Positions 1-30,411 of a stretch of DNA of 34,559 nt are shown piece by piece. The notes under the pieces are model-generated. The model did no database searches, was not told where the DNA came from, and saw nothing but the letters and a program-made list of their open reading frames with translations. Source of the DNA: a virus (lineage: Duplodnaviria; Heunggongvirae; Uroviricota; Caudoviricetes); the IMG/VR virus record IMGVR_UViG_2693429748_000009. One strand, 5' to 3'. Every line of letters begins with the position of its first letter. Position 1 is the stretch's first letter. The position numbers and the translations under genes are program-made.

Positions 1-650
1 AAAACCAGAACGGCGCAGATATTCCGGGGAAAGATACCTTCACCAAAAATATTGGTGCCTGCCGCGCATATAGCTCATGGCTGAATATTGGTGGCGATAG
101 TCAGGTCTGGACAACCGCGCAATTTATTTCGTGGCTGGAGAGTCAGGGAGCATTTAACCATCCTTACTGGATGTGCAAAGGCTCATGGGCTTATGCAAAT
201 AATAAGGTCATTACAGATACAGGTTGCGGAAATATTTGTCTTGCAGGTGCTGTGGTGGAAGTTATTGGCACTCGCGGCGCAATGACCATACGCGTTACCA
301 CGCCGAGCACGTCCAGCGGTGGCGGAATTACTAACGCTCAATTCACTTATATTAATCATGGTGATGCTTACGCTCCTGGCTGGCGACGAGACTACAACAC
401 GAAAAATCAACAACCTGCATTTGCTTTAGGGCAAACAGGAAGCACTGTCGGAAATGATAAAGCTGTTGGCTGGAACTGGAATAGCGGGGTCTATAACGCA
501 AACATTGGTGGCGCATCGACATTAATCCTCCACTTCAATATGAATACGGGGAGCTGCCCTGCTGTACAGTTCCGCGTGAATTACAGGAACGGCGGTATTT
601 TTTATCGTTCAGCGCGTGATGGTTATGGCTTTGAAGCTGACTGGTCAGAG
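1..650 (+). pseudogene. Side tail-fibre gene, distal variable segment (5' end outside window, frame 3), interrupted by IS600 after codon GAG at 648..650; the reading frame resumes at 4876
   Basis: Open frame from position 3 encodes ...GSTVGNDKAVGWNWNSGVYNANIGGASTLILHFNMNTGSCPAVQFRVNYRNGGIFYRSARDGYGFEADWSE, parallel to the fibre segment at 1926..2928. The stop codon TGA at 651..653 is supplied by the IS600 left end. Continuation FYTTTRKPSAGDVGA... begins at 4876. Confidence 0.75.
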
Positions 651-714
651 TGAGGTAGCCTGAGTTTAACGGACACTCCTTCCTGAAATAGAATGGCATC
701 AGAAGGAGCTAATA

Positions 715-1017
715 ATGAGCAGAAAAACCCAACGTTACTCTAAAGAGTTCAAAGCCGAAGCTGTCAGAACGGTTCTTGAAAATCAACTTTCGATCAGTGA
801 AGGCGCTTCCCGATTATCTCTTCCTGAAGGCACTTTAGGACAATGGGTTACCGCCGCCAGAAAAGGGCTCGGTACTCCTGGTTCCCGCACGGTGGCTGAA
901 CTGGAATCTGAAATTCTGCAACTGCGTAAGGCGTTAAATGAAGCTCGCCTTGAGCGAGATATATTAAAAAAAGCAACAGCGTATTTTGCACAGGAGTCGC
1001 TGAAAAATACGCGTTAA
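715..1017 (+). CDS. IS600 OrfA (transposase N-terminal HTH part)
   Basis: 100 aa MSRKTQRYSKEFKAEAVRTV..., with leucine-zipper-like C-terminus. A AAA AAA slippery heptamer at 966..972, and the -1 frame is open from 969 into orfB. Confidence 0.85.
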   Translation: MSRKTQRYSKEFKAEAVRTVLENQLSISEGASRLSLPEGTLGQWVTAARKGLGTPGSRTVAELESEILQLRKALNEARLERDILKKATAYFAQESLKNTR

Positions 1018-1052
1018 TCGAACAATGGCGACAACAATTTCCCATTGAAGCG

Positions 1053-1871
1053 ATGTGTCAGGTATTTGGTGTATCCAGGAGCGGTTATTACAACTGGGTA
1101 CAGCATGAACCCTCAGACAGAAAACAAAGTGATGAGCGGCTAAAACTGGAGATTAAGGTGGCACATATCCGCACTCGCGAAACATATGGAACCCGGCGGC
1201 TCCAGACGGAGCTGGCAGAGAATGGCATCATCGTTGGTCGTGACCGACTGGCACGTCTTCGTAAGGAGCTAAGGCTACGCTGTAAGCAGAAACGCAAGTT
1301 CAGAGCGACTACGAACTCGAACCACAATCTGCCAGTTGCGCCAAATCTGCTGAACCAGACGTTCGCTCCTACAGCACCAAATCAGGTCTGGGTGGCGGAC
1401 CTGACGTATGTTGCCACACAGGAGGGATGGTTGTACCTCGCTGGCATCAAAGATGTTTATACGTGCGAAATTGTCGGCTACGCCATGGGAGAGCGCATGA
1501 CAAAAGAGCTGACAGGTAAAGCCCTGTTTATGGCGCTCAGGAGCCAGCGCCCACCTGCCGGGCTAATCCACCACTCTGATCGAGGTTCACAGTACTGCGC
1601 ATACGATTACCGGGTCATACAGGAGCAGTCTGGTCTGAAAACATCAATGTCGCGTAAAGGTAACTGTTACGACAACGCTCCGATGGAAAGCTTCTGGGGA
1701 ACGCTGAAAAATGAGAGCCTGAGCCACTATCGTTTTAATAACCGGGATGAAGCCATCTCAGTAATACGGGAATACATTGAGATTTTCTACAATCGTCAGC
1801 GTCGTCACTCTCGTCTGGGGAATATCTCCCCGGCAGCCTTCAGGGAAAAATATCATCAGATGGCTGCTTAA
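1053..1871 (+). CDS. IS600 OrfB (integrase-like catalytic domain; probably expressed as an OrfAB fusion by -1 frameshift)
   Basis: 272 aa. IS3-family organisation; the orfB frame is open upstream to the slippery site at 966..972. Confidence 0.8.
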   Translation: MCQVFGVSRSGYYNWVQHEPSDRKQSDERLKLEIKVAHIRTRETYGTRRLQTELAENGIIVGRDRLARLRKELRLRCKQKRKFRATTNSNHNLPVAPNLLNQTFAPTAPNQVWVADLTYVATQEGWLYLAGIKDVYTCEIVGYAMGERMTKELTGKALFMALRSQRPPAGLIHHSDRGSQYCAYDYRVIQEQSGLKTSMSRKGNCYDNAPMESFWGTLKNESLSHYRFNNRDEAISVIREYIEIFYNRQRRHSRLGNISPAAFREKYHQMAA

Positions 1872-1914
1872 AAAAAGAACAAATGGTAGTGTCCGCTATT
1901 GCCAGTACACCTCA

Positions 1915-1925
1915 NNNNNNNNNNN
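1915..1925. other. Assembly gap (11 N) directly after the IS600 right end
   Basis: Run of n characters in the sequence. Confidence 0.99.
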
Positions 1926-3078
1926 CGAGCTGGCTGCGGCGCTGGGCAACGACCCGAATTTTGCGACCACCATGACTAACGCGCTTGCGGGTAAGCAACC
2001 GAAAGATGCCACCCTGACGGCGCTGGCCGGACTTACTACTGCGGCAGGCAAGTTTCCGTATTTTACGGGGAATGATGTCGCCAGCCTGGCAACCCTGACA
2101 AAAGTCGGGCGGGATATTCTTGCGAAATCGACCGTTGCTGCCGTTATCGAATACCTCGGTTTACGAGAACTCGGCACAAGCGGGGAGAAAATACCGTTAC
2201 TCAGTACAGCGAATACCTGGACTAATCGACAAACATTCAGCGGTGGCCTTTCTGGTGAACTATCCGGCAATGCTTCTACAGCTGCAAAATTAAAAACTGC
2301 CAGGAAAATAAGCAATGTGGCTTTTGATGGTTCCTCCGATATCACATTAAAAGCAAGTCATGTTGGTGCGTTTGCCTTAGGGAAAACAGGAAGCACCGTT
2401 GCGAATGATAAAGCAGTTGGATGGAACTGGAGTAGCGGAGCCTATAACGCAACTATTAGTGGTGCATCAACGTTAATTATTCATTTTTATATGGGAGAAG
2501 GAAGTTGTCCTGCAGCTCAGTTTCGGATTAATTATAAAAATGGCGGTATTTTTTATCGTTCAGCCCGTGATGGTTATGGTTTTGAAGCCGACTGGTCCGA
2601 ATTTTACACCACCAGAAAACCTTCAGCAGGAGATGTTGGTGCACTGCCGTTATCTGGTGGTCAACTGAATGGTGCACTGGGTATCGGAACATCCAGTGCT
2701 CTTGGCGGTAATTCGATTGTATTGGGTGATAATGACACGGGCTTTAAACAAAAAGGCGATGGTAATCTGGATGTTTATGCTAATAACGTCCATGTTATGC
2801 GCTTTGTCTCCGGAAGCATTCAAAGTAATAAAACCATAAATATTACGGGACGTGTTAATCCCTCGGATTACGGTAACTTTGATTCCCGCTATGTGAGAGA
2901 TGTCAGACTTGGCACACGAGTTGTTTAGACCATGAAGAAAGGCGTGATGTATGAAAAATCAGGCCATGTAATCACGGGGCTTGGTATTATCGGTGAAGTC
3001 GATGGTGATGATCCGGCAGTATTCAGACCAATACAAAAGTTAATTAACGGAACATGGTATAACGTATCGCAGGTATAA
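1926..3078 (+). pseudogene. Tail-fibre gene 3' portion (P2 H-like shared region followed by variable distal segment), 5' end lost in the gap, with an in-frame amber TAG at 2926..2928
   Basis: Translation ELAAALGNDPNF...AVIEYLGL matches the minus-strand H gene at 8569..9639 at about 98% nucleotide identity. After RLGTRVV comes TAG, then the same frame continues [49 protein letters not shown] to TAA at 3076..3078. That tail is the C-terminus kept in the other fibre cassettes (compare ...[17 protein letters not shown] at 6236). Confidence 0.7.
2144..2169. other. gix/pix-like 26-bp crossover site, variant, at the constant/variable junction of the fibre gene
   Basis: TTATCGAATACCTCGGTTTACGAGAA. 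Compare the gix-type consensus TTATCCAAAACCTCGGTTTACAGGAA (recalled from memory). Inverted relative to the sites at 7124 and 8614. Confidence 0.55.
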
Positions 3079-3080
3079 TC

Positions 3081-3614
3081 ATGCAGCATTTAAAAAACAT
3101 TGTCGCAGGTAATCCAAAAACCGTTGAACAATACCAGCTAACAAAGAATTTTGATGTTATCTGGTTATGGTCCGAAGATGGAAAAAATTGGCATGAGGAA
3201 TTAAAAAACTTTCAGGAGGATACAATAAAACTGGCTTACACAGTTGAGGGAATAATTATTGCTATAGACAAGGATGTATCAGCAATTAATCCAGAAGGTT
3301 TAAGTGTCGTTGAGTTGCCTGATATTACAGCAAATCGCCGGGCTGATATTTCGGGCAACTGGATGTTCAAAGATGGTGCGGTGATAAAGCGAACTTATAC
3401 CGAGGAAGAGCAAAGGCAACAAGCGGAAAATGAAAAGCAGAGCCTGCTGCAGCTCGTCAGGGATAAAACCCAGCTGTGGGACTCTCAGCTACAGCTGGGC
3501 ATCATTTCCGATGAGAATAAACAAAAATTAACCGAGTGGATGCTCTATGCGCAGAAGGTCGAATCCACAGACACCTCCAGCCTGCCAGTAACGTTTCCCG
3601 AACAACCAGAATGA
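3081..3614 (+). CDS. Tail-fibre assembly protein (Tfa; P2 G / Mu U family)
   Basis: 177 aa. C-terminal half is nearly identical to the Tfa at 5145..5678. The stop codon overlaps the IS600 left end. Confidence 0.8.
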
Positions 3615-3675
3615 GGTAGCCTGAGTTTAACGGACACTCCTTCCTGAAATAGAATGGCATCAGAAGGAGCTAATA

Positions 3676-3978
3676 ATGAGCAGAAAAACCCAACGTTACT
3701 CTAAAGAGTTCAAAGCCGAAGCTGTCAGAACGGTTCCTGAAAATCAACTTTCGATCAGTGAAGGCGCTTCCCGATTATCTCTTCCTGAAGGCACTTTAGG
3801 ACAATGGGTTACCGCCGCCAGAAAAGGGCTCGGTACTCCTGGTTCCCGCACGGTGGCTGAACTGGAATCTGAAATTCTGCAACTGCGTAAGGCGTTAAAT
3901 GAAGCTCGCCTTGAGCGAGATATATTAAAAAAAGCAACAGCGTATTTTGCACAGGAGTCGCTGAAAAATACGCGTTAA
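3676..3978 (+). CDS. IS600 OrfA
   Basis: 100 aa, one residue different from the copy at 715..1017. Confidence 0.85.
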   Translation: MSRKTQRYSKEFKAEAVRTVPENQLSISEGASRLSLPEGTLGQWVTAARKGLGTPGSRTVAELESEILQLRKALNEARLERDILKKATAYFAQESLKNTR

Positions 3979-4013
3979 TCGAACAATGGCGACAACAATT
4001 TCCCATTGAAGCG

Positions 4014-4832
4014 ATGTGTCAGGTATTTGGTGTATCCAGGAGCGGTTATTACAACTGGGTACAGCATGAACCCTCAGACAGAAAACAAAGTGATGAGCGG
4101 CTAAAACTGGAGATTAAGGTGGCACATATCCGCACTCGCGAAACATATGGAACCCGGCGGCTCCAGACGGAGCTGGCAGAGAATGGCATCATCGTTGGTC
4201 GTGACCGACTGGCACGTCTTCGTAAGGAGCTAAGGCTACGCTGTAAGCAGAAACGCAAGTTCAGAGCGACTACGAACTCGAACCACAATCTGCCAGTTGC
4301 GCCAAATCTGCTGAACCAGACGTTCGCTCCTACAGCACCAAATCAGGTCTGGGTGGCGGACCTGACGTATGTTGCCACACAGGAGGGATGGTTGTACCTC
4401 GCTGGCATCAAAGATGTTTATACGTGCGAAATTGTCGGCTACGCCATGGGAGAGCGCATGACAAAAGAGCTGACAGGTAAAGCCCTGTTTATGGCGCTCA
4501 GGAGCCAGCGCCCACCTGCCGGGCTAATCCACCACTCTGATCGAGGTTCACAGTACTGCGCATACGATTACCGGGTCATACAGGAGCAGTCTGGTCTGAA
4601 AACATCAATGTCGCGTAAAGGTAACTGTTACGACAACGCTCCGATGGAAAGCTTCTGGGGAACGCTGAAAAATGAGAGCCTGAGCCACTATCGTTTTAAT
4701 AACCGGGATGAAGCCATCTCAGTAATACGGGAATACATTGAGATTTTCTACAATCGTCAGCGTCGTCACTCTCGTCTGGGGAATATCTCCCCGGCAGCCT
4801 TCAGGGAAAAATATCATCAGATGGCTGCTTAA
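4014..4832 (+). CDS. IS600 OrfB
   Basis: 272 aa, identical to the copy at 1053..1871. Confidence 0.8.
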   Translation: MCQVFGVSRSGYYNWVQHEPSDRKQSDERLKLEIKVAHIRTRETYGTRRLQTELAENGIIVGRDRLARLRKELRLRCKQKRKFRATTNSNHNLPVAPNLLNQTFAPTAPNQVWVADLTYVATQEGWLYLAGIKDVYTCEIVGYAMGERMTKELTGKALFMALRSQRPPAGLIHHSDRGSQYCAYDYRVIQEQSGLKTSMSRKGNCYDNAPMESFWGTLKNESLSHYRFNNRDEAISVIREYIEIFYNRQRRHSRLGNISPAAFREKYHQMAA

Positions 4833-4875
4833 AAAAAGAACAAATGGTAGTGTCCGCTATTGCCAGTACACCTCA

Positions 4876-5142
4876 GAGTTTTACACCACAACCCGCAAAC
4901 CCTCTGCGGGAGATGTTGGTGCATATACGCAGGCAGAATGTAACTCAAGGTTTATTACAGGTATTCGCCTTGGTGGTCTGTTATCTGTTCAGACATGGAA
5001 TGGTCCCGGATGGTCTGACAGGTCAGGTTATGTTGTTACCGGTTCCGTTAACTCAAACAGAGATGAACTAATTGATACAACTCAGGCAAGGCCAATTCAG
5101 TATTGCATTAATGGGACGTGGTATAACGCGGGGAGTATTTAA
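4876..5142 (+). pseudogene. 3' part of the tail-fibre gene interrupted at 650 (distal receptor-binding end)
   Basis: Frame EFYTTTRKPSAGDVGAYTQ...ARPIQYCINGTWYNAGSI* continues ...GFEADWSE from 1..650. GAG at 4876..4878 repeats GAG at 648..650. Confidence 0.75.
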
Positions 5143-5144
5143 CG

Positions 5145-5678
5145 ATGATGCACTTAAAAAACATTTCTGCTGGTAATCCTGAAACAAAAGAGCAATACCA
5201 GCTAACGAAACAATTTAACATCAAATGGCTTTATACAGAGGATGGGAAAAACTGGTATGAGGAACAAAAGAACTTTCAGCCTGATACGTTGAAAATGGTC
5301 TATGACCACAACGGCGTTATTATTTGTATTGAAAAGGATGTTTCAGCAATTAATCCGGAAGGCGCAAGCGTCGTTGAGGTTCCTGATATTACAGCAAATC
5401 GCCGGGCTGATATTTCAGGTAAATGGATGTTCAAAGATGGCGTAGTGATAAAGCGAACTTATACCGGGGAAGAGCAGAGGCAACAAGCGGAAAATGAAAA
5501 GCAAAGCCTGCTACAGCTCGTCAGGGATAAAACCCAGCTATGGGACTCACAGCTACGGCTGGGCATTATTTCCGACGAGAATAAACAAAAATTAACCGAG
5601 TGGATGCTCTATGCGCAGAAGGTCGAATCCACAGACACCTCCAGCCTGCCAGTAACGTTTCCCGAACAACCAGAATGA
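5145..5678 (+). CDS. Tail-fibre assembly protein (Tfa)
   Basis: 177 aa, begins 2 nt after the fibre stop; paralogue of 3081..3614. Confidence 0.85.
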   Translation: MMHLKNISAGNPETKEQYQLTKQFNIKWLYTEDGKNWYEEQKNFQPDTLKMVYDHNGVIICIEKDVSAINPEGASVVEVPDITANRRADISGKWMFKDGVVIKRTYTGEEQRQQAENEKQSLLQLVRDKTQLWDSQLRLGIISDENKQKLTEWMLYAQKVESTDTSSLPVTFPEQPE

Positions 5679-5681
5679 GAG

Positions 5682-5711
5682 AAGGCCCGCTATCGGGCCT
5701 TAATTTTTATT
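5682..5711. terminator. Hairpin plus T-run between the convergent tfa genes
   Basis: AAGGCCCG-CTAT-CGGGCCTT followed by AATTTTTATT. Confidence 0.6.
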
Positions 5712-6234
5712 CAGGCTTTTGTGGCCATTCAGGATTTGCCGTATCCACACGGCTGACCAGAACACTGTAGCGTTCCCATGCTTCCAGTCGTGTGCGTTCC
5801 TCGTCCGTCGCCATATTCAGCCTGACAGCGCGTTCCAGCGGCTGGATGACTGATTCAGCTTCGGAAAGCAATGCGGCCTTTTGTGATTCGGCCTGTTGTT
5901 GCAGTTCCTGTTCTGTATATTCCCTCTTTACTACTTTACCATCCAGAAACATCCATTTTCCGTTATTGTCTGCGTGACGATTTGCCGTAATATCAGGAAC
6001 TTCAACTATGCTTAGCCCTTCAGGATTAATAGTTGAAACGTCTTTACTGACAGCAACGATGATGTTGTTCTCATCGTAAGCAATTTTTATGGTGTCTGGC
6101 TGAAAATTCTTTTGTTCCTCATACCAGTTTTTGCCATCTTCGCAAAAGAGCCATACCACGCCCGCTTTTTTAGTTAGCTGGTATTGTTCCGGTGTTTTCG
6201 GATTCCCGGCCTTAATATTTTTCAGGTGCATCAT
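5707..6234 (-). CDS. Tail-fibre assembly protein (Tfa), opposite orientation
   Basis: [22 protein letters not shown]... with the conserved Tfa N-terminus. The ORF-track start at 6270 overlaps the fibre gene, so the start at 6234 is preferred. Confidence 0.8.
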
Positions 6235-6235
6235 C

Positions 6236-7141
6236 TTAAACACTCCCCACGTTGTACCATATTCCCCCAATCAATTTCTGAATTGGCCTTCTGGCAACAG
6301 TGTCGACAATATCATCCGCATTGCTGTTAATTGCGGCTGTTAAAACATAACCTGACGCATCGCCAAAGCCGTAGTCGCGCCATACGTTTTTATATTCAAT
6401 GCTGCCAAGACGAATATCCCGAACGACATGATTATGCAGCCATGTGCTTAACCAGTTGTTTTCCCACACTGAACCATAAATATCGCCACTAGACGCAACT
6501 TGCGCACCACTTCCCAGCGCAAATCCCCCATCTGTTTTAAAAATGAAATCACCACCACCATCTGAACCGTTATTAATATGAACACCATCACCACCGTTAT
6601 CTTTCCACAAAAACATACGAATTCTTCCGTCTTCGTTGGCGAATGTAATGTGGTGGCGGTAATTACTTTTTAATCTAAAATTGCTGCCATTAGATTCAAT
6701 ATCTTTATAAAGATGTAATCCTAACTCATCAATATGTCCGATGCGCGAACCATTTGAATAGAAGCTAATAATACCATCTCCATCTTGCCTAAATCCGGTG
6801 TCGTTATCTCCCAGAACAATGGAGTTTTCACCCAGTGCGTTATCAGTAGCTCCAATAGCTAGACCTCCTTTAATTTTGGCCCCGTGGCTGACAGATATAG
6901 CACCTGTTCTCAGATTTATAGCGAATGGCCTTAATGGGCCGATATTACCGTTTTCGCCTTGTCCTTCAGCCGTCGGAATGAAATGAAGAAAATCTTCTGA
7001 ACGACGGAAAATTAGACCGAAGGTATCATTGAAAATTCGCAGCGCATTCACCGTGCCAATTTTCAGTTCTCCGGTCATTTTATCGCCGGAACGCTGAACG
7101 GCGTTACCAGCCTTGTTTACCGTTTCCTGTAAACCGAGGTT
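6236..7141 (-). CDS. Alternative tail-fibre C-terminal cassette with no start codon of its own; would be expressed only after fusion to the constant part of the fibre gene by inversion
   Basis: Minus-strand frame is open from just below the stop at 7142..7144 and reads [29 protein letters not shown]...[18 protein letters not shown]. Its first codons are encoded by the crossover site at 7124..7149. Confidence 0.7.
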
Positions 7142-7149
7142 TTAGATAA
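7124..7149. other. gix/pix-like 26-bp crossover site next to the invertase gene
   Basis: TTCCTGTAAACCGAGGTTTTAGATAA, one mismatch to the recalled gix consensus. The outer half-site carries an in-frame TAA, as expected for the invertase-proximal site. Confidence 0.65.
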
Positions 7150-7203
7150 TGGCGGTTTCTGGCCTGCATGGCATGATTTGTGCTTTTGGACGGGAGATTC
7201 AGC

Positions 7204-7436
7204 GTGCTGATTGGCTATGTAAGGGTATCAACAAATGACCAGAATACAGACCTGCAACGAAACGCTCTTGTTTGTGCAGGATATGAACAAATATTTGAAG
7301 ATAAATTAAGCGGAACAAGGACAGGCCGACCTGGATTAAAACGTGCTTTAAAGCGCCTTCAAAAAGGTGACGCACTGGTTGTCTGAAAACTGGACTGACT
7401 GGGTCACTGTATGCGGCATCTTGTCGTGCTGGTGGT
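7204..7436 (+). pseudogene. pin: Pin/Gin/Hin-family serine DNA invertase, inactivated: two nonsense codons then truncation into a tfa 3' remnant
   Basis: GTG-start frame MLIGYVRVSTNDQNTDLQRNALVCAGYEQIFEDKLSGTRTGRPGLKRALKRLQKGDALVV reaches TGA at 7384..7386 where Trp is expected; a second TGA at 7396..7398. At about 7437 the frame merges into tfa-derived sequence. Confidence 0.75.
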
Positions 7437-7531
7437 GGAAGCCTAGAAAAAGTATCGGGTGTTGCTGAACCGTGTTGATACATCAACTGCACCTGATATT
7501 GAGTGGCCTACGAACCCTGTCAGGGAGTAAT
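7437..7531 (+). repeat. tfa 3'-end remnant (copy 1 of a 72-bp direct repeat) fused downstream of the pin pseudogene
   Basis: Encodes (E)[23 protein letters not shown]..., a lambda-Tfa-like C-terminus. Repeated at 8486..8557 with two mismatches. Confidence 0.7.
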
Positions 7532-7584
7532 CATTGGGATTATGCCGCAGCACGTCTTAAGCAAGAACGTGCTGCGGTTGGATG

Positions 7585-8253
7585 CTATTTTTTCCCTGAA
7601 GCGGAAAACATTACTACAGTACCTTGAACCCTGGTTTTAACATTCTCGAAATGCTCTGAGAGTATATGTGTTAAGCCTTCTTCGGAATCTTTTGTGTTTG
7701 AAAAGATGCCTTTCTGATTGTAAATGCGCATCAGTTTTTGACCGAAGCTATTGTGCACAACTCCATCGCCAAGAATTGTGGCTCCGTATAGAGTTCCATC
7801 ATCAGTTAAGGCCTGCGCCGCATTGCGTATTACACAGCTTTTTGTAGATATATTTCCAGGCAGGCAGTGAAGAAGGTAAAACATGGAAATGGAATCAAAT
7901 TGACCATGTAACGCCGCGGGATAAGGTTCAAAAACATCATGGCTAATTTTATGTTTAATTTTTGATTCCCCAGCCCTTGTAGATGCCGCGTTCAGGCTAG
8001 CTTCGTTCAAATCCATTAAAGATATCAGACTACTCTCAGGTACGTGAGTAAGGTAAAACCCAGTTCCAACACCAATATCCAGATGGTTGTTACCTAAATG
8101 TTCCAGAAAGTGTGGAAGAAGGTGTTCCTTTGTAGGACATCCCCATGCAAGCCGATTTGATACTCCCAAAACCCACCAGTCATAAAGCTTTAGGGTAAGT
8201 GGTGTGTAAATTTTAGCCCCATCATCTGTGTTTTTTTTCATTAATTTCACCAT
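7585..8253 (-). CDS. Class-I SAM-dependent methyltransferase (small-molecule/RNA type, not an obvious DNA methyltransferase), AT-rich
   Basis: 222 aa with motif I LDIGVGTGFY. No DPPY/NPPY or C5-methyltransferase motifs seen. Low GC compared with its neighbours. Alternative start at 8241. Confidence 0.7.
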   Translation of the reverse strand: MVKLMKKNTDDGAKIYTPLTLKLYDWWVLGVSNRLAWGCPTKEHLLPHFLEHLGNNHLDIGVGTGFYLTHVPESSLISLMDLNEASLNAASTRAGESKIKHKISHDVFEPYPAALHGQFDSISMFYLLHCLPGNISTKSCVIRNAAQALTDDGTLYGATILGDGVVHNSFGQKLMRIYNQKGIFSNTKDSEEGLTHILSEHFENVKTRVQGTVVMFSASGKK

Positions 8254-8355
8254 ATTATAGTTTTATTTGTGAATTAAATCAATTATGGCGATGAATTACA
8301 AGGGGTTAAATGCTGCCGCAGCATAGCGATATTGAAATAGCCTAGTATGCTTCGA

Positions 8356-8557
8356 TACAGCAGGAGCCGAATGGCTGGAAGACCGTCACCACACAGTTCT
8401 ACATCCAGGAATTTAGTGAGTATATTGCGCCACTGCAGGATGCTGTAGATCTGGAGATCGCAACGGAGGAAGAAAACTCGTTGCTGGAAGCCTGGAAGAA
8501 GTATCGGGTGTTGCTGAACCGTGTTGATACATCAACTGCACCTGATATTGAGTGGCC
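8356..8557 (+). pseudogene. Tail-fibre assembly gene 3' fragment (copy 2 of the 72-bp repeat), running into the gap
   Basis: Frame ...[49 protein letters not shown], lambda Tfa C-terminus-like; upstream in-frame TAG. Confidence 0.6.
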
Positions 8558-8568
8558 NNNNNNNNNNN
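8558..8568. other. Assembly gap (11 N)
   Basis: Run of n characters. Confidence 0.99.
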
Positions 8569-9639
8569 GCCGTTCTGGTTTTTCTGTAATGCGCCAGAAG
8601 CCTGATTTACCGTTTCCTGTAAACCGAGGTATTCGATAACGGCGGCAACGGTCGATTTCGCAAGAATATCCCGCCCGACTTTTGTCAGGGTTGCCAGGCT
8701 GGCGACATCATTCCCCGTAAAATACGGAAACCTGTCTGCCGCAGTAGTAAGTCCGGCCAGCGCCGTCAGGGTGGCATCTTTCGGTTGCTTACCCGCAAGC
8801 GCGTTAGTCATGGTGGTCGCAAAATTCGGGTCGTTGCCCAGCGCCGCCGCCAGCTCGTTCAGTGTGTTCAGTGCATCAGGCGAAGAGTCTACAAGTGCGG
8901 CAATCGCAGCCATAACGAAAGCCGTGCTTGCGATTTGGGTATTATTCGTTCCCTGTCGCGCAGTTGGTGTTGTTGGCGTTCCGGTCAGTGCCGGGCTGTT
9001 TAATGGGGCTTTCTTGTTCGTTTCATCCATTACTGCCTTAACGGCTTTTGGTGTCGCTGCCAGCGTTTCAGACGTGCTGTTGGTGGCGTTGCTGAGCTGG
9101 ACAAGGCCTTTTGCGGTCAGCGAGGCGTCCGGGTGACGTCGTGACTGTTCATGCTCTTTCAGTTTGTCATCCACGTAATTCACTGTGGCCATCACCATGG
9201 TGTTATCCACGGTAAGCGCCACAGTGGCAGTGCTGGATACGGTCAGAATGGTGCGAAATGTTTGTGCACGTCCGGATCCTTCGGCAACGGTTGGCTTGTA
9301 ACTTTCGGCAGTATTGCCTACCGCGATCAAATCGCCGTGCTCATCAAACACACCAATTTCCCGGATCCAGAATCCGCCCGTTTCAGGAGGAATAACCAGC
9401 TCCGCAATAATGTGGTTCTGATGTGTTGCGTCCAGGGTGACGCGATTAACGGTATGTCGCCACACCTCATGCACAAGACGGGTCTGCTTACTGTCTGGCG
9501 TGGGTAAAGTACCGCCGCCGTCACCCACGGCCATATGTGTCAGGCGGACAGGTTTCCCATCTGGCGCGGTTGCCTGCGCTAATTTTTTTGCACCCGTATC
9601 GGTGATAATGGTTTTAAATTTTCGTGTTGTGGTACTCAT
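8569..9639 (-). CDS. P2 gpH-like tail fibre, N-terminal and shared part; 3' end lost in the gap
   Basis: MSTTTRKFKTIITDTGAKKL... with repeated LTAKG/SATNSTSETLAATPKAVK-type motifs. Sits after gpI/gpJ as in P2. The ORF-track residues beyond the gap are artefact. Confidence 0.8.
8614..8639. other. gix/pix-like 26-bp crossover site inside the P2-like H gene
   Basis: TTCCTGTAAACCGAGGTATTCGATAA on the plus strand; codes ...[11 protein letters not shown] on the minus strand. Confidence 0.6.
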
Positions 9640-9641
9640 GC

Positions 9642-10172
9642 TTAATCGTCCGGATAAATGGTAATGACTTCACCGTCGTAAGTTGCTGCTGCCGCGAAAA
9701 TATCTCCCTGAATCTCCTGAATGATATTCAGCCCTGTCATGTGGCGGCTGACCGGGCGGGCATCAGCAATCAACCGCTCCATTTCCAGATACATTTCCTC
9801 CGTCACGCCACTGTCCAGCGTGCCAACATCAATCTTGAATGTTCCGGGTTCGCCGTTGAACTCCCACCACTCAGACACGCGAATGAGGTATCCCAGCGGC
9901 TCAATGGCCCGTCGCAGGGCGCTGATGGTTCCTTTGTGTCGGTGTATCAGCCATGCATCACGAATCACCTGTCGCTTTGTCTCTTCCGGCCAGTTGCGAT
10001 CCCAGCGGTCAACGGAAAACGCCCAGGCGAGATAAGGCAGCAGATGCACCGGGCAGGTGTCCGGCGACCACAGCGTGTTGAGGTCTGCCGGAATGTCTGT
10101 AATGCGTGTTCCGACGGCTTCGGCACAACGCATGAAATTGCTGGCTGATGGTGGTAACAGTGAATTACTCAT
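9642..10172 (-). CDS. Baseplate assembly protein (P2 gpI-like)
   Basis: Synteny plus motif LAWAFSVDRWD. Start chosen at MSNSLLPP. Confidence 0.75.
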   Translation of the reverse strand: MSNSLLPPSASNFMRCAEAVGTRITDIPADLNTLWSPDTCPVHLLPYLAWAFSVDRWDRNWPEETKRQVIRDAWLIHRHKGTISALRRAIEPLGYLIRVSEWWEFNGEPGTFKIDVGTLDSGVTEEMYLEMERLIADARPVSRHMTGLNIIQEIQGDIFAAAATYDGEVITIYPDD

Positions 10173-29072: not shown

Positions 29073-29384
29073 ATGTCAATAGAGATATCAAAGAAGCTAA
29101 AAGCAATTCGAGAATCTGAGGGGCTTAGTCAGGCAAAGTTCGCGGATTCAATAGGTATTGCGGTTGGTACGGTTAAGCAATACGAGACTGGTATTCGAGG
29201 TGTGGGAACGGAGGTTTTACTGAAAATCACAATGCACCCGGAATTTAAAAAATACACTACGTGGTTGATGAGTAACGAAACAAATGAGGCTGCTGGGCAG
29301 ATCAGTCCTTCTCTCTCCCCTGATGGGCCAGAAAACACATCGTCTTCTCAAAAATCCCGCAAGACTGGCACACAGCCCGGCTAA
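29073..29384 (+). CDS. Immunity repressor (P2 C-like HTH)
   Basis: MSIEISKKLKAIRESEGLSQAKFADSIGIAVGTVKQYETG (HTH) and FKKYTTWLMSNE tail; AGGTG SD. The track N-terminus from 28971 is probably spurious. Confidence 0.7.
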   Translation: MSIEISKKLKAIRESEGLSQAKFADSIGIAVGTVKQYETGIRGVGTEVLLKITMHPEFKKYTTWLMSNETNEAAGQISPSLSPDGPENTSSSQKSRKTGTQPG

Positions 29385-29433
29385 TCATGGAACGCTGGGG
29401 GCATGGTGGTCTTGTAACGCTGGGGCTTCACGA

Positions 29434-30411
29434 ATGAGCATAAAATCAATTCCGGGAGGGTATCTTCTTGACATGCGTCCTGAGGGGCGTAAAGGCAAAC
29501 GCATTCGCAAAAAATTTAAAACGAAATCGGATGCAGTTTTATATGAGCGGTGGGTGCTGGCGCAACAGCATAACAATGAGTGGAAAGGAAACTCCATTGA
29601 TCGCCGTCCGCTGTCAGTGCTTATTGACTTGTGGTGGAAATACCACGGCCAGCTAATGAAGTCAGGGCATAACACGCGCCTTAAATTGCTGCGCTTGAGT
29701 GAGGCAATGGATGACCCGTGCGTGCATAAACTTAATACAACGATGCTCACCGAGCTACGTGTGTCCAGGATAGAGCAGGGGATACAGCCCAGCACCATAA
29801 ATCGAGAGATTGGGGCGTTAAGCGCGATGTTTACCGCACTCATCTCATCCGGCCATTTTCTTAACGATAACCCCGTTCAAGGCCTTAAAGGAATGAAGGT
29901 TAACGAGCGTGAAATGGGATATCTGAGTAAGTCTGAATGTGTTCAGTTGCTGGATGCACTGGCTGAAAATCCCGATGAACGGCTGGCCGTCGAAATCCTT
30001 CTGTCGACCGGGGCGCGATGGGGCGAGGTAGCGGCACTGGAGCAGCGCCGTGTTCTTCATTGTCGAATCACTTTTTCAAAAACGAAGAACAGCAAAAACC
30101 GTACCGTTCCTATTTCTGAAAGCCTGTTTGAAAAGATCAAAAAACGGGGCGGGAAACTGGTGTTTCCGACGCTGGATTATTCATTGGTTCGCGATGTCAT
30201 CAAAACGGTCGCACCTGATGTTCCTGACGGCCAGGCTGTTCATGCGCTGCGCCACACCTTCGCCAGTCATTTCATGATGAACGGCGGCAATATTCTGACG
30301 CTCCAGAAAATTCTGGGGCACGCAAAGATTCAGACAACGATGATTTATGCCCATCTTGCGCCGGATTACTTGCAGGATGCGGTGAGGTTTAATCCCTTGG
30401 GAGGAATGTAA
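29434..30411 (+). CDS. int: Tyrosine integrase (P2 Int family)
   Basis: LSTGARWGEVAAL ... HALRHTFASHFMMNGGNILTLQKILGH ... MIYAHLAPDYL. Start MSIKSIPGGY preferred. Confidence 0.85.
   Translation: MSIKSIPGGYLLDMRPEGRKGKRIRKKFKTKSDAVLYERWVLAQQHNNEWKGNSIDRRPLSVLIDLWWKYHGQLMKSGHNTRLKLLRLSEAMDDPCVHKLNTTMLTELRVSRIEQGIQPSTINREIGALSAMFTALISSGHFLNDNPVQGLKGMKVNEREMGYLSKSECVQLLDALAENPDERLAVEILLSTGARWGEVAALEQRRVLHCRITFSKTKNSKNRTVPISESLFEKIKKRGGKLVFPTLDYSLVRDVIKTVAPDVPDGQAVHALRHTFASHFMMNGGNILTLQKILGHAKIQTTMIYAHLAPDYLQDAVRFNPLGGM

Follow-up and report, generated by a model that had tools for sequence, protein, structure and literature searches.

Tail-fibre switches with Gin-type crossover sites are textbook biology. 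In phage Mu, the site gix (TTCCTGTAAACCGAGGTTTTGGATAA) is present at both annotated boundaries of the invertible G segment. Prophage Phi4 of Escherichia coli EC958 has the crossover sites described below, together with a truncated invertase without an HTH domain, and both orientations of its segment were seen in PacBio reads, an inversion ascribed to a trans-acting invertase (Forde et al. 2014, PMC4134206). PinQ inverts the P segment of e14 in trans and is reported to give fibre chimeras that block adsorption (PMC12529663), while Min of plasmid p15B is cited as a multi-site inversion system (Sandmeier 1994, as cited in PMC4134206). A recombinational enhancer bound by Fis lies in the 5′ coding region of hin (PMC2724282).

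Here we analysed a window of 34,559 nucleotides (IMG/VR record IMGVR_UViG_2693429748_000009), in which an earlier note had described one fibre inversion locus comprising three or more crossover sites and several cassettes. Tail-fibre switching DNA of the Mu G or e14 P type is indeed present, with gix-like sites and mirrored cassettes; the single locus is not supported, as the site at 8614 comes from another prophage and N-run joins lie between. The interval is probably a scaffolded composite of two separate, known and decayed Gin-type tail-fibre switches (Table 1), and we infer that its juxtaposed, multi-site architecture is most likely an artefact of scaffolding or of IS600.

Table 1 Features of the two fibre switches, the IS600 copies and the scaffold joins, in window coordinates
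Feature	Position	Strand	Remark
varA, 5′ two-thirds	1..650	+	100% identical to L018 9085-9735
IS600 copy a (IS3 family; orfA 715-1017, orfB 1053-1871)	651..1914	+	99.9-100% identical to annotated IS600
11-N run, probable scaffold join	1915..1925	.	Flanking sequences of different origin
stf constant part, last 218 nt	1926..2143	+	100% identical to L010, 99.9% to L011 stf
stf-side crossover site	2144..2169	-	TTCTCGTAAACC GA GGTATTCGATAA; 4 mismatches to Mu gix
Variable cassette B (varB)	2170..3078	+	gp37_C domain; nonsense codon inside
tfaB, tail-fibre assembly gene	3081..3614	+	Exact protein in 4765 collection blocks
IS600 copy b	3612..4875	+	Full copy
varA 3′ end, last ~88 codons of P88-like fibre gene	4876..5142	+	100% identical to L018
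tfaA, assembly gene paired with varA	5145..5678	+	Exact protein match
tfaC′, assembly gene of mirrored cassette	5707..6234	-	Caudo_TAP, E = 7.9e-37
Start-less variable cassette C (varC′)	6236..7123	-	gp37_trimer; 100% identical to L011
Invertase-side crossover site	7124..7149	+	TTCCTGTAAACC GA GGTTTTAGATAA; 1 mismatch to Mu gix
gin-like invertase pseudogene	7204..7436	+	TGA at codons 61 and 65; resolvase N-terminal domain only
tfa 3′ remnant fused to invertase stump	7433..7533	+	Repeat; alignment
SAM-dependent methyltransferase, class I	7585..8253	-	Cargo of lambdoid prophage end
Second tfa 3′ remnant	8380..8557	+	Contig end falls inside
11-N run, probable scaffold join	8558..8568	.	Collinear E. 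coli E66 match ends exactly at 8557
First 45 nt of varA	8569..8613	-	QETVNQASGALQKNQNG
Crossover site inside P88-like fibre gene H	8614..8639	+	TTCCTGTAAACC GA GGTATTCGATAA; 2 mismatches to Mu gix
Constant part of fibre gene H, P88-like (Xuanwuvirus, P2-family)	8640..9639	-	99.6% identical to L018/L020

The three 26-bp sites lie exactly where they had been reported, within one to four mismatches of Mu gix, and those at 2144 and 7124 form an inverted pair, as proposed; 7124 and 8614 are direct repeats and not inverted ones. With up to three mismatches tolerated, a scan picked up sites 7124 and 8614, where 100 shuffles gave an expectation of 0.00, and none of the three is expected by chance. All have GA as the central dinucleotide between imperfectly symmetric 12-bp halves (dyad matches at 7–9 of 12 positions), and their variable-side half-sites are near-identical. 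The same sequences recur elsewhere: site 2144 as the stf-side site of L011 and NCTC86, site 7124 as the invertase-side site of P88, L018, L011 and E66, and site 8614 as the H-side site of phage P88 and L018. Conserved fibre sequence had been said to flank every site; at 7124 the flank is instead the invertase-side half-site, reading AII*NLGL.

Sites 2144 and 7124 can be identified, from their surroundings, as the natural two-site pair of a lambdoid side-tail-fibre (stf) switch. Positions 1926–3611 and ~5700–8557 are 99.9–100% identical to a single contiguous prophage in CP026802.1, and identity to L011 is 99.94% over 1926–3611 and ~100% over ~5680–8557 (for tfaC′, from ~5870 onward). The constant arm at 1926, of 244 nt, begins directly after an N run, and the 5′ ~2.3 kb of stf is missing from the window; 1926–2143 is only 96.7% identical to the constant part of the P88-like gene H. 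Beyond this arm, varB–tfaB on the plus strand opposes tfaC′–varC′ on the minus strand, giving mirrored fibre 3′ cassettes that each carry a tfa, and of these varC′ is start-less with a reading frame open from the crossover site on. A plus-strand cassette with tfa (varB 2170–2928 with tfaB) and a start-less minus-strand cassette with tfa were thus both described correctly before. The varB frame is closed by a TAG at 2926–2928, its last 48 codons forming a separate ORF (2932–3078); this TAG is common to L011, and NCTC86 has CAG there. In the complete genomes read, the exact tfaB protein is found in the lambdoid prophage adjoining trpA. The layout would run from the stf constant part through site 2144, varB–tfaB facing tfaC′–varC′, and site 7124 to the gin-like pseudogene, a tfa remnant, the SAM methyltransferase and a second tfa remnant, and a flip of the segment would place either varB or varC behind the constant part of stf.

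E. coli E66, NCTC86 and EC958 share the truncated recombinase with its tfa remnant and methyltransferase, at a lambdoid prophage end adjoining potB or trpA, and the truncated-invertase module is also in L011. Relatives of this Phi4-type end have a lambda-like J-lom-stf order upstream and lie at ompW/trpA or potB; at least 80% of 7095–8400 is carried by at least 409 of 5426 complete E. coli genomes.

The adjoining invertase is, judging by its reading frame, dead. In alignment to Gin, PinE and P88 gp43, TGA replaces W61 and R65, and the stump ends at about codon 77 of ~193, continuing into a tfa 3′ remnant; the two in-frame stops and the truncation into tfa had both been recognized earlier. Over the first 60 residues the stump matches Gin at 57, the DNA at 7121–7394 is 96–97% identical to Mu gin and P88-like gin, and neither domain search nor alignment found another invertase-like match in the 34.5-kb window. 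The 5′ region of the gene is kept, with 96–97% identity to the 5′ end of Mu gin, and by analogy with hin a Fis-dependent enhancer probably survives there in cis.

The locus had been called probably frozen unless an invertase acted in trans. The need for a trans-acting enzyme stands, and relatives and the literature show that such inversion does happen. Both switches were found in both orientations among near-identical genomes, with half-sites swapped exactly at the central GA: L011 differs from L005 and L010, which carry the same prophage at trpA, by an exact half-site exchange at the GA core, and the P88-like segment also occurs in both orientations among relatives. Because both orientations and exact half-site exchange are seen in near-identical genomes, the lambdoid segment appears invertible in trans. 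With two intact inverted sites and the 5′ invertase region retained, an invertase from another prophage should therefore be able to flip the 2144–7124 segment. Inversion at these sites is thus shown in relatives; for this particular strain we infer, by analogy, that it would occur in trans.

Site 8614, from its flanks, is recognizable as the one in fibre gene H of a different prophage, which is P88-like (P2 family) and sits at btuC. Positions 8569–9700 are 99.6% identical to L018, and this prophage extends rightwards to an integrase at 29284–30411 adjoining btuC (gene order; integrase and btuCED). The H constant part, its crossover site and a variable cassette with tfa are all present, with varA and tfaA dispersed over three places in the window. 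The fragment at 1–650 continues 8569–8613 directly, but on the opposite strand, until cut off by IS600a; joining the reverse complement of 8569–9639 to 15–653 gives one open frame of 569 codons that ends in an IS600 TGA, and in the contiguous relatives L018, L016 and L020 the H constant part runs through the site into the sequence of window 15–651 without a break. Positions 4876–5142 carry on the reading frame of 1–650 across a GAG duplication, GAG being both the left flank of IS600a and the right flank of IS600b. On this evidence, a single IS600 insertion interrupts varA, with GAG as its target duplication. Identity to L018 is 100% from 4873 to ~5870, and the exact tfaA protein was found in P88-like prophage switches, in both orientations, in seven of the eight places listed. 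The second fibre 3′ part with tfa reported earlier is therefore present (4876–5142 and 5145–5678), but it is the tail of the P88-like varA. The P88-like layout would be the H constant part, site 8614, varA (1–650), the IS600 split, 4876–5142 and then tfaA.

Gene H, an invertible segment and an intact 195-aa invertase occur together in phage P88, L012, L013, L015, L016, L018, L020 and L022–L025. In L018 the partner site is 3 kb from the H-side site, and the intact invertase of the relatives lies just downstream of it. The P88-like partner site, second cassette, 195-aa invertase and tail genes U and T are absent from the window, as is the rest of that prophage (E, tube, sheath and D).

As the sequence stands, the lambdoid and P88-like systems meet only across N-run scaffold joins, the run at 8558–8568 separating site 8614 from the other two sites. 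Because window 1–14 is the reverse complement of 8569–8582, at least one join appears mis-oriented. The N runs and the two IS600 copies had gone unnoticed in the earlier reading.

That reading was of a single working Mu G-like locus, whose three or more sites would let a trans-acting invertase bring various fibre and tfa cassettes into place after one fibre gene, in the manner of p15B Min. Three GA-core sites with near-identical variable-side half-sites within 6.5 kb of scaffold speak for it, and invertases of this family do work on heterologous sites in trans. We give it hardly any credence, however: the third site lies beyond a scaffold gap and is native to another prophage, recombination between the direct repeats at 7124 and 8614 would delete rather than invert, and no fibre gene is intact from 5′ to 3′, the 5′ part of stf being missing, varB having its nonsense codon and varA being split by IS600. 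In the relatives examined, each switch has two sites and no more. A Min-like or shufflon-like multi-site system is likewise not supported, given the foreign third site beyond an N-run join and the two-site relatives.

A different case can be made from the IS600 copies. The junction of tfaB with IS600b (3611/3612) is continuous sequence without N, where the tfaB stop codon is formed by the first three bases of IS600b and only TGAG is common with the native sequence. This junction is probably real, in which case IS600 has rearranged the lambdoid switch at least once in this strain. IS600a and IS600b differ at one base (position 776), so they are not simply copies collapsed by the assembler; IS600b sits within the supposed invertible segment. 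The change from P88-like to lambdoid identity at ~5680–5870 could be a real homologous exchange instead of an assembly path. The scaffold might then be right apart from its N runs, IS600 and homologous recombination having fused P88-like and lambdoid modules into a scrambled, non-functional region in a Shigella-like, IS-rich genome, possibly by integration of an IS600-bounded stf–varB–tfaB unit into an IS600 already within varA. Such a history fits related complete genomes, in which IS600 and IS1 have rearranged these prophages many times, and also the natural varA–tfaA–tfaC′–varC′–dead-invertase arrangement of E. coli E66. We nevertheless consider it unlikely, as N runs fall exactly at the two joins that it requires, the inverted 14-nt overlap of contigs 1 and 3 fits one broken gene and not two loci, the remainder of the P88-like prophage is missing, and the junctions of the scaffold were found in no public genome searched. 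That the two switches were truly fused in the strain via IS600 and the shared tfa repeat, with three compatible sites, is very improbable; if so, a trans-acting invertase could exchange receptor-binding cassettes between two unrelated prophages, and could also delete the stretch that separates direct site 7124 from direct site 8614.

We thus favour the scaffolded composite, in which the pieces would have been united by N-run contig joins together with an assembly path, or a real exchange, that ran through IS600 and through the tfa 3′ repeat of ~200 nt; they would not owe their proximity to the evolution of a multi-site switch. Both switches have already been described, the dead-invertase lambdoid type with trans inversion having been published in 2014 for EC958 Phi4, and the region is ordinary, with little new biology. 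N-run joins and IS copies within prophage fibre regions can imitate multi-site switches. A locus is not to be called frozen on the strength of a truncated invertase stump, since its cis sites are still there and its enhancer probably is too. If trans inversion of cryptic modules makes adsorption-blocking chimeras, the widespread Phi4-type module could, by analogy with e14, have a role in host defence, to which the window itself adds no support.

Compared with known systems, the lambdoid part resembles the Mu G segment in its mirrored Sv-U/U′-S′v cassette layout, and the sites are one to four positions from gix; unlike in Mu, the invertase is a pseudogene and the hosts are lambdoid and P2-like prophages. 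With the e14 P segment and PinE it shares the form of a cryptic-prophage fibre switch that another prophage's invertase can flip (PinQ, PMC12529663), but the e14 sites are more than six positions from gix and PinE is intact. Unlike Min of p15B, the window has no demonstrated contiguous array of at least three sites. Its H constant part, H-side site, varA and tfaA are those of Escherichia phage P88 (Xuanwuvirus, Peduoviridae) and P88-like prophages; where these relatives have the order I-H-[segment]-invertase-U-T, the window has the H side only, with varA broken by IS600 and a contig end and with neither invertase nor partner site. For the lambdoid part the counterpart is EC958 Phi4, an stf switch adjoining ompW/trpA in a prophage of E. 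coli ST131. The window differs from it in its varB and varC cassettes, the varB nonsense codon, the IS600 abutting tfaB, the inserted foreign varA 3′ end and tfaA, and a scaffold that does not hold the 5′ part of stf. The 26-bp sites of Phi4 are made from the same half-sites, and window 7129–8557 is 98.6% identical to Phi4 (NZ_HG941718 1487871-1489299) through the truncated gin-like invertase, tfa remnant, SAM methyltransferase and second tfa remnant.

The three 26-bp sequences that the earlier note had proposed as gix-like crossover sites are present in the window and share a central GA. Mu gix (TTCCTGTAAACCGAGGTTTTGGATAA) occurs exactly twice in the Mu genome, inverted, at both annotated boundaries of the G segment, and scanning the window with up to three mismatches to gix recovered two of the three sites, against 0.00 expected from shuffles. 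The fibre and tfa cassettes also match the note's description. Its reading of the whole as one Mu G-like locus with at least three crossover sites was not supported, as the switches of all relatives examined have two sites each, 7124 and 8614 stand in direct orientation, and the third site is linked to the others only via a scaffold gap; neither the N runs nor the IS600 copies figured in that account.

Features of the fibre-switch region and flanking prophage in the window
Feature	Coordinates	Strand	Sequence	Mismatches to Mu gix
Site 2144	2144–2169	−	TTCTCGTAAACCGAGGTATTCGATAA (other strand)	4
Site 7124	7124–7149	+	TTCCTGTAAACCGAGGTTTTAGATAA	1
Site 8614	8614–8639	+	TTCCTGTAAACCGAGGTATTCGATAA	2
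IS600a	651–1914
First N run	1915–1925
IS600b	3612–4875
Invertase stump	7204–~7436
SAM-dependent methyltransferase	7585–8253	−
Second N run	8558–8568
P88-like integrase	29284–30411

Window 4873–8557 matched, collinearly and in one piece (96.3%), the right-hand end of the lambdoid prophage beside potB in E. coli E66, ordered J-lom-stf-tfa-(tfa' stf')-65-aa recombinase stump-tfa remnant-SAM methyltransferase-tfa remnant, with collinearity ending exactly at the second N run. Window 1926–3614 shared 99.1% identity with the 3' part of stf and the tfa of the lambdoid prophage by ompW/trpA in NCTC86, which terminates with the same stump and methyltransferase module. Among complete genomes with the exact tfaB protein, the prophage in CP026802.1 (locus L011) was 99.94% identical over 1926–3615 and ~100% over ~5680–8557. 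As L011 matches both stretches, sites 2144 and 7124 form the natural pair of an L011-type lambdoid switch. The varB part carries a CAG-to-TAG nonsense change at 2926–2928 that is common to L011, the codon being intact in NCTC86; this TAG is a lineage marker for decay of the varB cassette.

The invertase was correctly called dead: TGA replaces W61 and R65 in the stump, which beyond about codon 77 passes into a tfa 3' remnant, and the 34.5-kb window holds no other invertase-like sequence. Of its first 60 residues, 57 are identical to Gin; over the gene's first ~190 nt and its upstream region, identity to Mu gin is 96–97%. Past the Gin-like first 64 codons, at 7395–7436, the stump (LGHCMRHLVVLV) resembles e14 PinE (LGRSMRHLVVLV) more than Gin (LGRSMKHLISLV), and may therefore be a recombinant pseudogene. 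The stump module (7129–8557) shares 98.6% identity with the EC958 prophage Phi4, and at least 80% of 7095–8400 was found in 409 of 5,426 complete E. coli genomes. The orphan class I SAM-dependent methyltransferase at the lambdoid prophage end has a tfa 3' remnant on either side, and this tfa-remnant/methyltransferase part is far commoner among E. coli than the stump of the invertase. Before the second N run, the last ~85 nt (8473–8557) are 89% identical to L011 and 99% to E66, and are similar in sequence to the other tfa remnant copy (7433–7508), a pattern that suggests either tfa-remnant gene conversion or a repeat collapsed where contig 2 ends.

Gin-type enzymes recombine two inverted 26-bp sites by strand exchange at the central dinucleotide and require Fis bound to a cis enhancer. 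The lambdoid switch has a dead invertase but both of its sites intact; the intact sites and the gin-like 5' region indicate that the cis requirements are probably met. In L011, the stf side reads TTCTCG..GA..GGTATTCGATAA and the stump side TTCCTG..GA..GGTTTTAGATAA. Two further loci, L005 and L010, carry this prophage at trpA, and their DNA is ~100% identical. Relative to L011, their half-sites are exchanged exactly at GA and stf is joined to varC, not varB. This is direct evidence, from relatives, that inversion of the module does not depend on its own enzyme. Phi4 showed both orientations in PacBio reads from one culture, and the Phi1 invertase was proposed to act in trans (Forde et al., PMC4134206); the e14 P segment is inverted by PinQ of Qin (PMC12529663). 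The outputs in the present strain would be crippled in any case, given the varB TAG, the splitting of varA by IS600 and the absence of the stf 5' part from the scaffold.

Genes from 8640 to ~29000 constitute a P2-family prophage (I, J, W, V on to portal, terminase and replication genes), whose closest phage relative is P88 (Xuanwuvirus) and whose integrase adjoins btuC-btuE-btuD-nlpC, defining the integration site. P88 itself has the order I-H-tfa-(tfa' fibre')-DNA invertase-U-T. Relatives whose J or tfaA protein is exactly that of the window have an H-side site, a 3-kb segment (found in both orientations among strains), an invertase-side site and an intact 195-aa invertase (VLIGYVRVSTNDQ...GTIEKSQETK), and window 8569–9700 is 99.6% identical to these P88-like relatives. 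Site 8614 belongs to a different prophage than sites 2144 and 7124. We also considered 1926–2169 and 8614–8857 (244 nt) as the long inverted repeats of a single P1-C-like switch; this was rejected, the identity of the two arms being 100% to a lambdoid stf and 99.6% to a P88-like H, with six positions differing between them.

The P88-like fibre gene itself could be pieced together. Window 1–651 matches, at 100% identity, the stretch with which this gene continues in the P88-like locus L018, and 1–14 is the reverse complement of 8569–8582; the reverse complement of 8569–9639 joined to 15–653 gives a single open frame of 569 codons, ending at the first TGA of IS600a. The ~88 missing H codons lie at 4876–5142, followed by tfaA, and are 100% identical to L018. 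GAG flanks IS600a on its left side and IS600b on its right, the 3-bp duplication expected of one insertion. Together, the shared GAG flanks, L018 match and open frame give a gene of H-constant, site 8614, varA::IS600 and tfaA, dispersed in the record over three places and two strands. The rest of the P88-like prophage, from its second cassette, partner site and invertase to U, T, E, tube, sheath and D, is absent; its tail-gene half is missing from the scaffold.

Both IS600 copies are full IS3-family elements (IS600 by RefSeq annotation), one base apart in sequence. As a marker, the Leu-to-Pro change in OrfA of IS600b is useless: it is a common IS600 allele with many copies. In the P88-like relatives L019 (7772–9053), L022 (12103–13400) and L025 (12102–12650), the same IS600 insertion lies within the invertase-proximal crossover site, as TTCCTGTAAACCGAG(GTT)-IS600-(GTT)TTAGATAA, and it occurs with both orientations of the invertible segment. 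Either the remaining quasi-site TTCCTGTAAACC GA GGTTTGAGGTGT would still recombine, or IS600 would have struck the same spot twice.

The only ambiguous bases are two runs of exactly 11 N, both within the interval of the finding; the window is apparently a whole scaffold of three contigs with fixed 11-N spacers. The arrangement is probably a scaffold of separate pieces, because the window begins at the break of a gene whose other half begins directly behind an N run, each of the two runs falls exactly at a change of sequence origin, the rest of the P88-like prophage is absent, and the lambdoid module lies by trpA or potB in relatives versus a P88-like prophage by btuC here. The inverted 14-nt overlap between the starts of contigs 1 and 3 implies that contig 1 is wrongly placed, either in strand or in position. 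Within contig 2, identity changes from P88-like to lambdoid inside a ~200-nt stretch common to both modules (5680–5870), where a repeat-induced assembly path would change. That the N runs mask 11 real bases is unlikely, given the same overlap and the changes of origin at both runs. An assembler k-mer size read from the contig ends (62-nt overhang past the divergence point at 8631) was discarded, as the other ends do not fit the same k. What speaks against a pure artefact is the tfaB/IS600b junction, which is continuous and has only TGAG in common with native sequence, so that at least one real IS600 event probably touches the lambdoid switch. Exact-pattern searches of genome contigs matched neither the join at the second N run (with wildcards) nor the IS600b/varA3' junction, and those of viral and metagenome contigs found no contiguous copy of the junctions; none of the public genomes searched has them, and protein look-up found no record of the sole possible ORF over the IS600b/varA3' junction. 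A candidate IS600-junction match in E. coli 720632 proved to be a different P2-like prophage with IS600 within a tfa gene.

The finding is thus biology that was known before, met here in a degraded, Shigella-like setting ridden with IS elements. In its working mode it is like the Mu G segment, and unlike Min, which is a multi-site system. The lambdoid part is the same module as in EC958 Phi4, here accompanied by a P88-type H gene.
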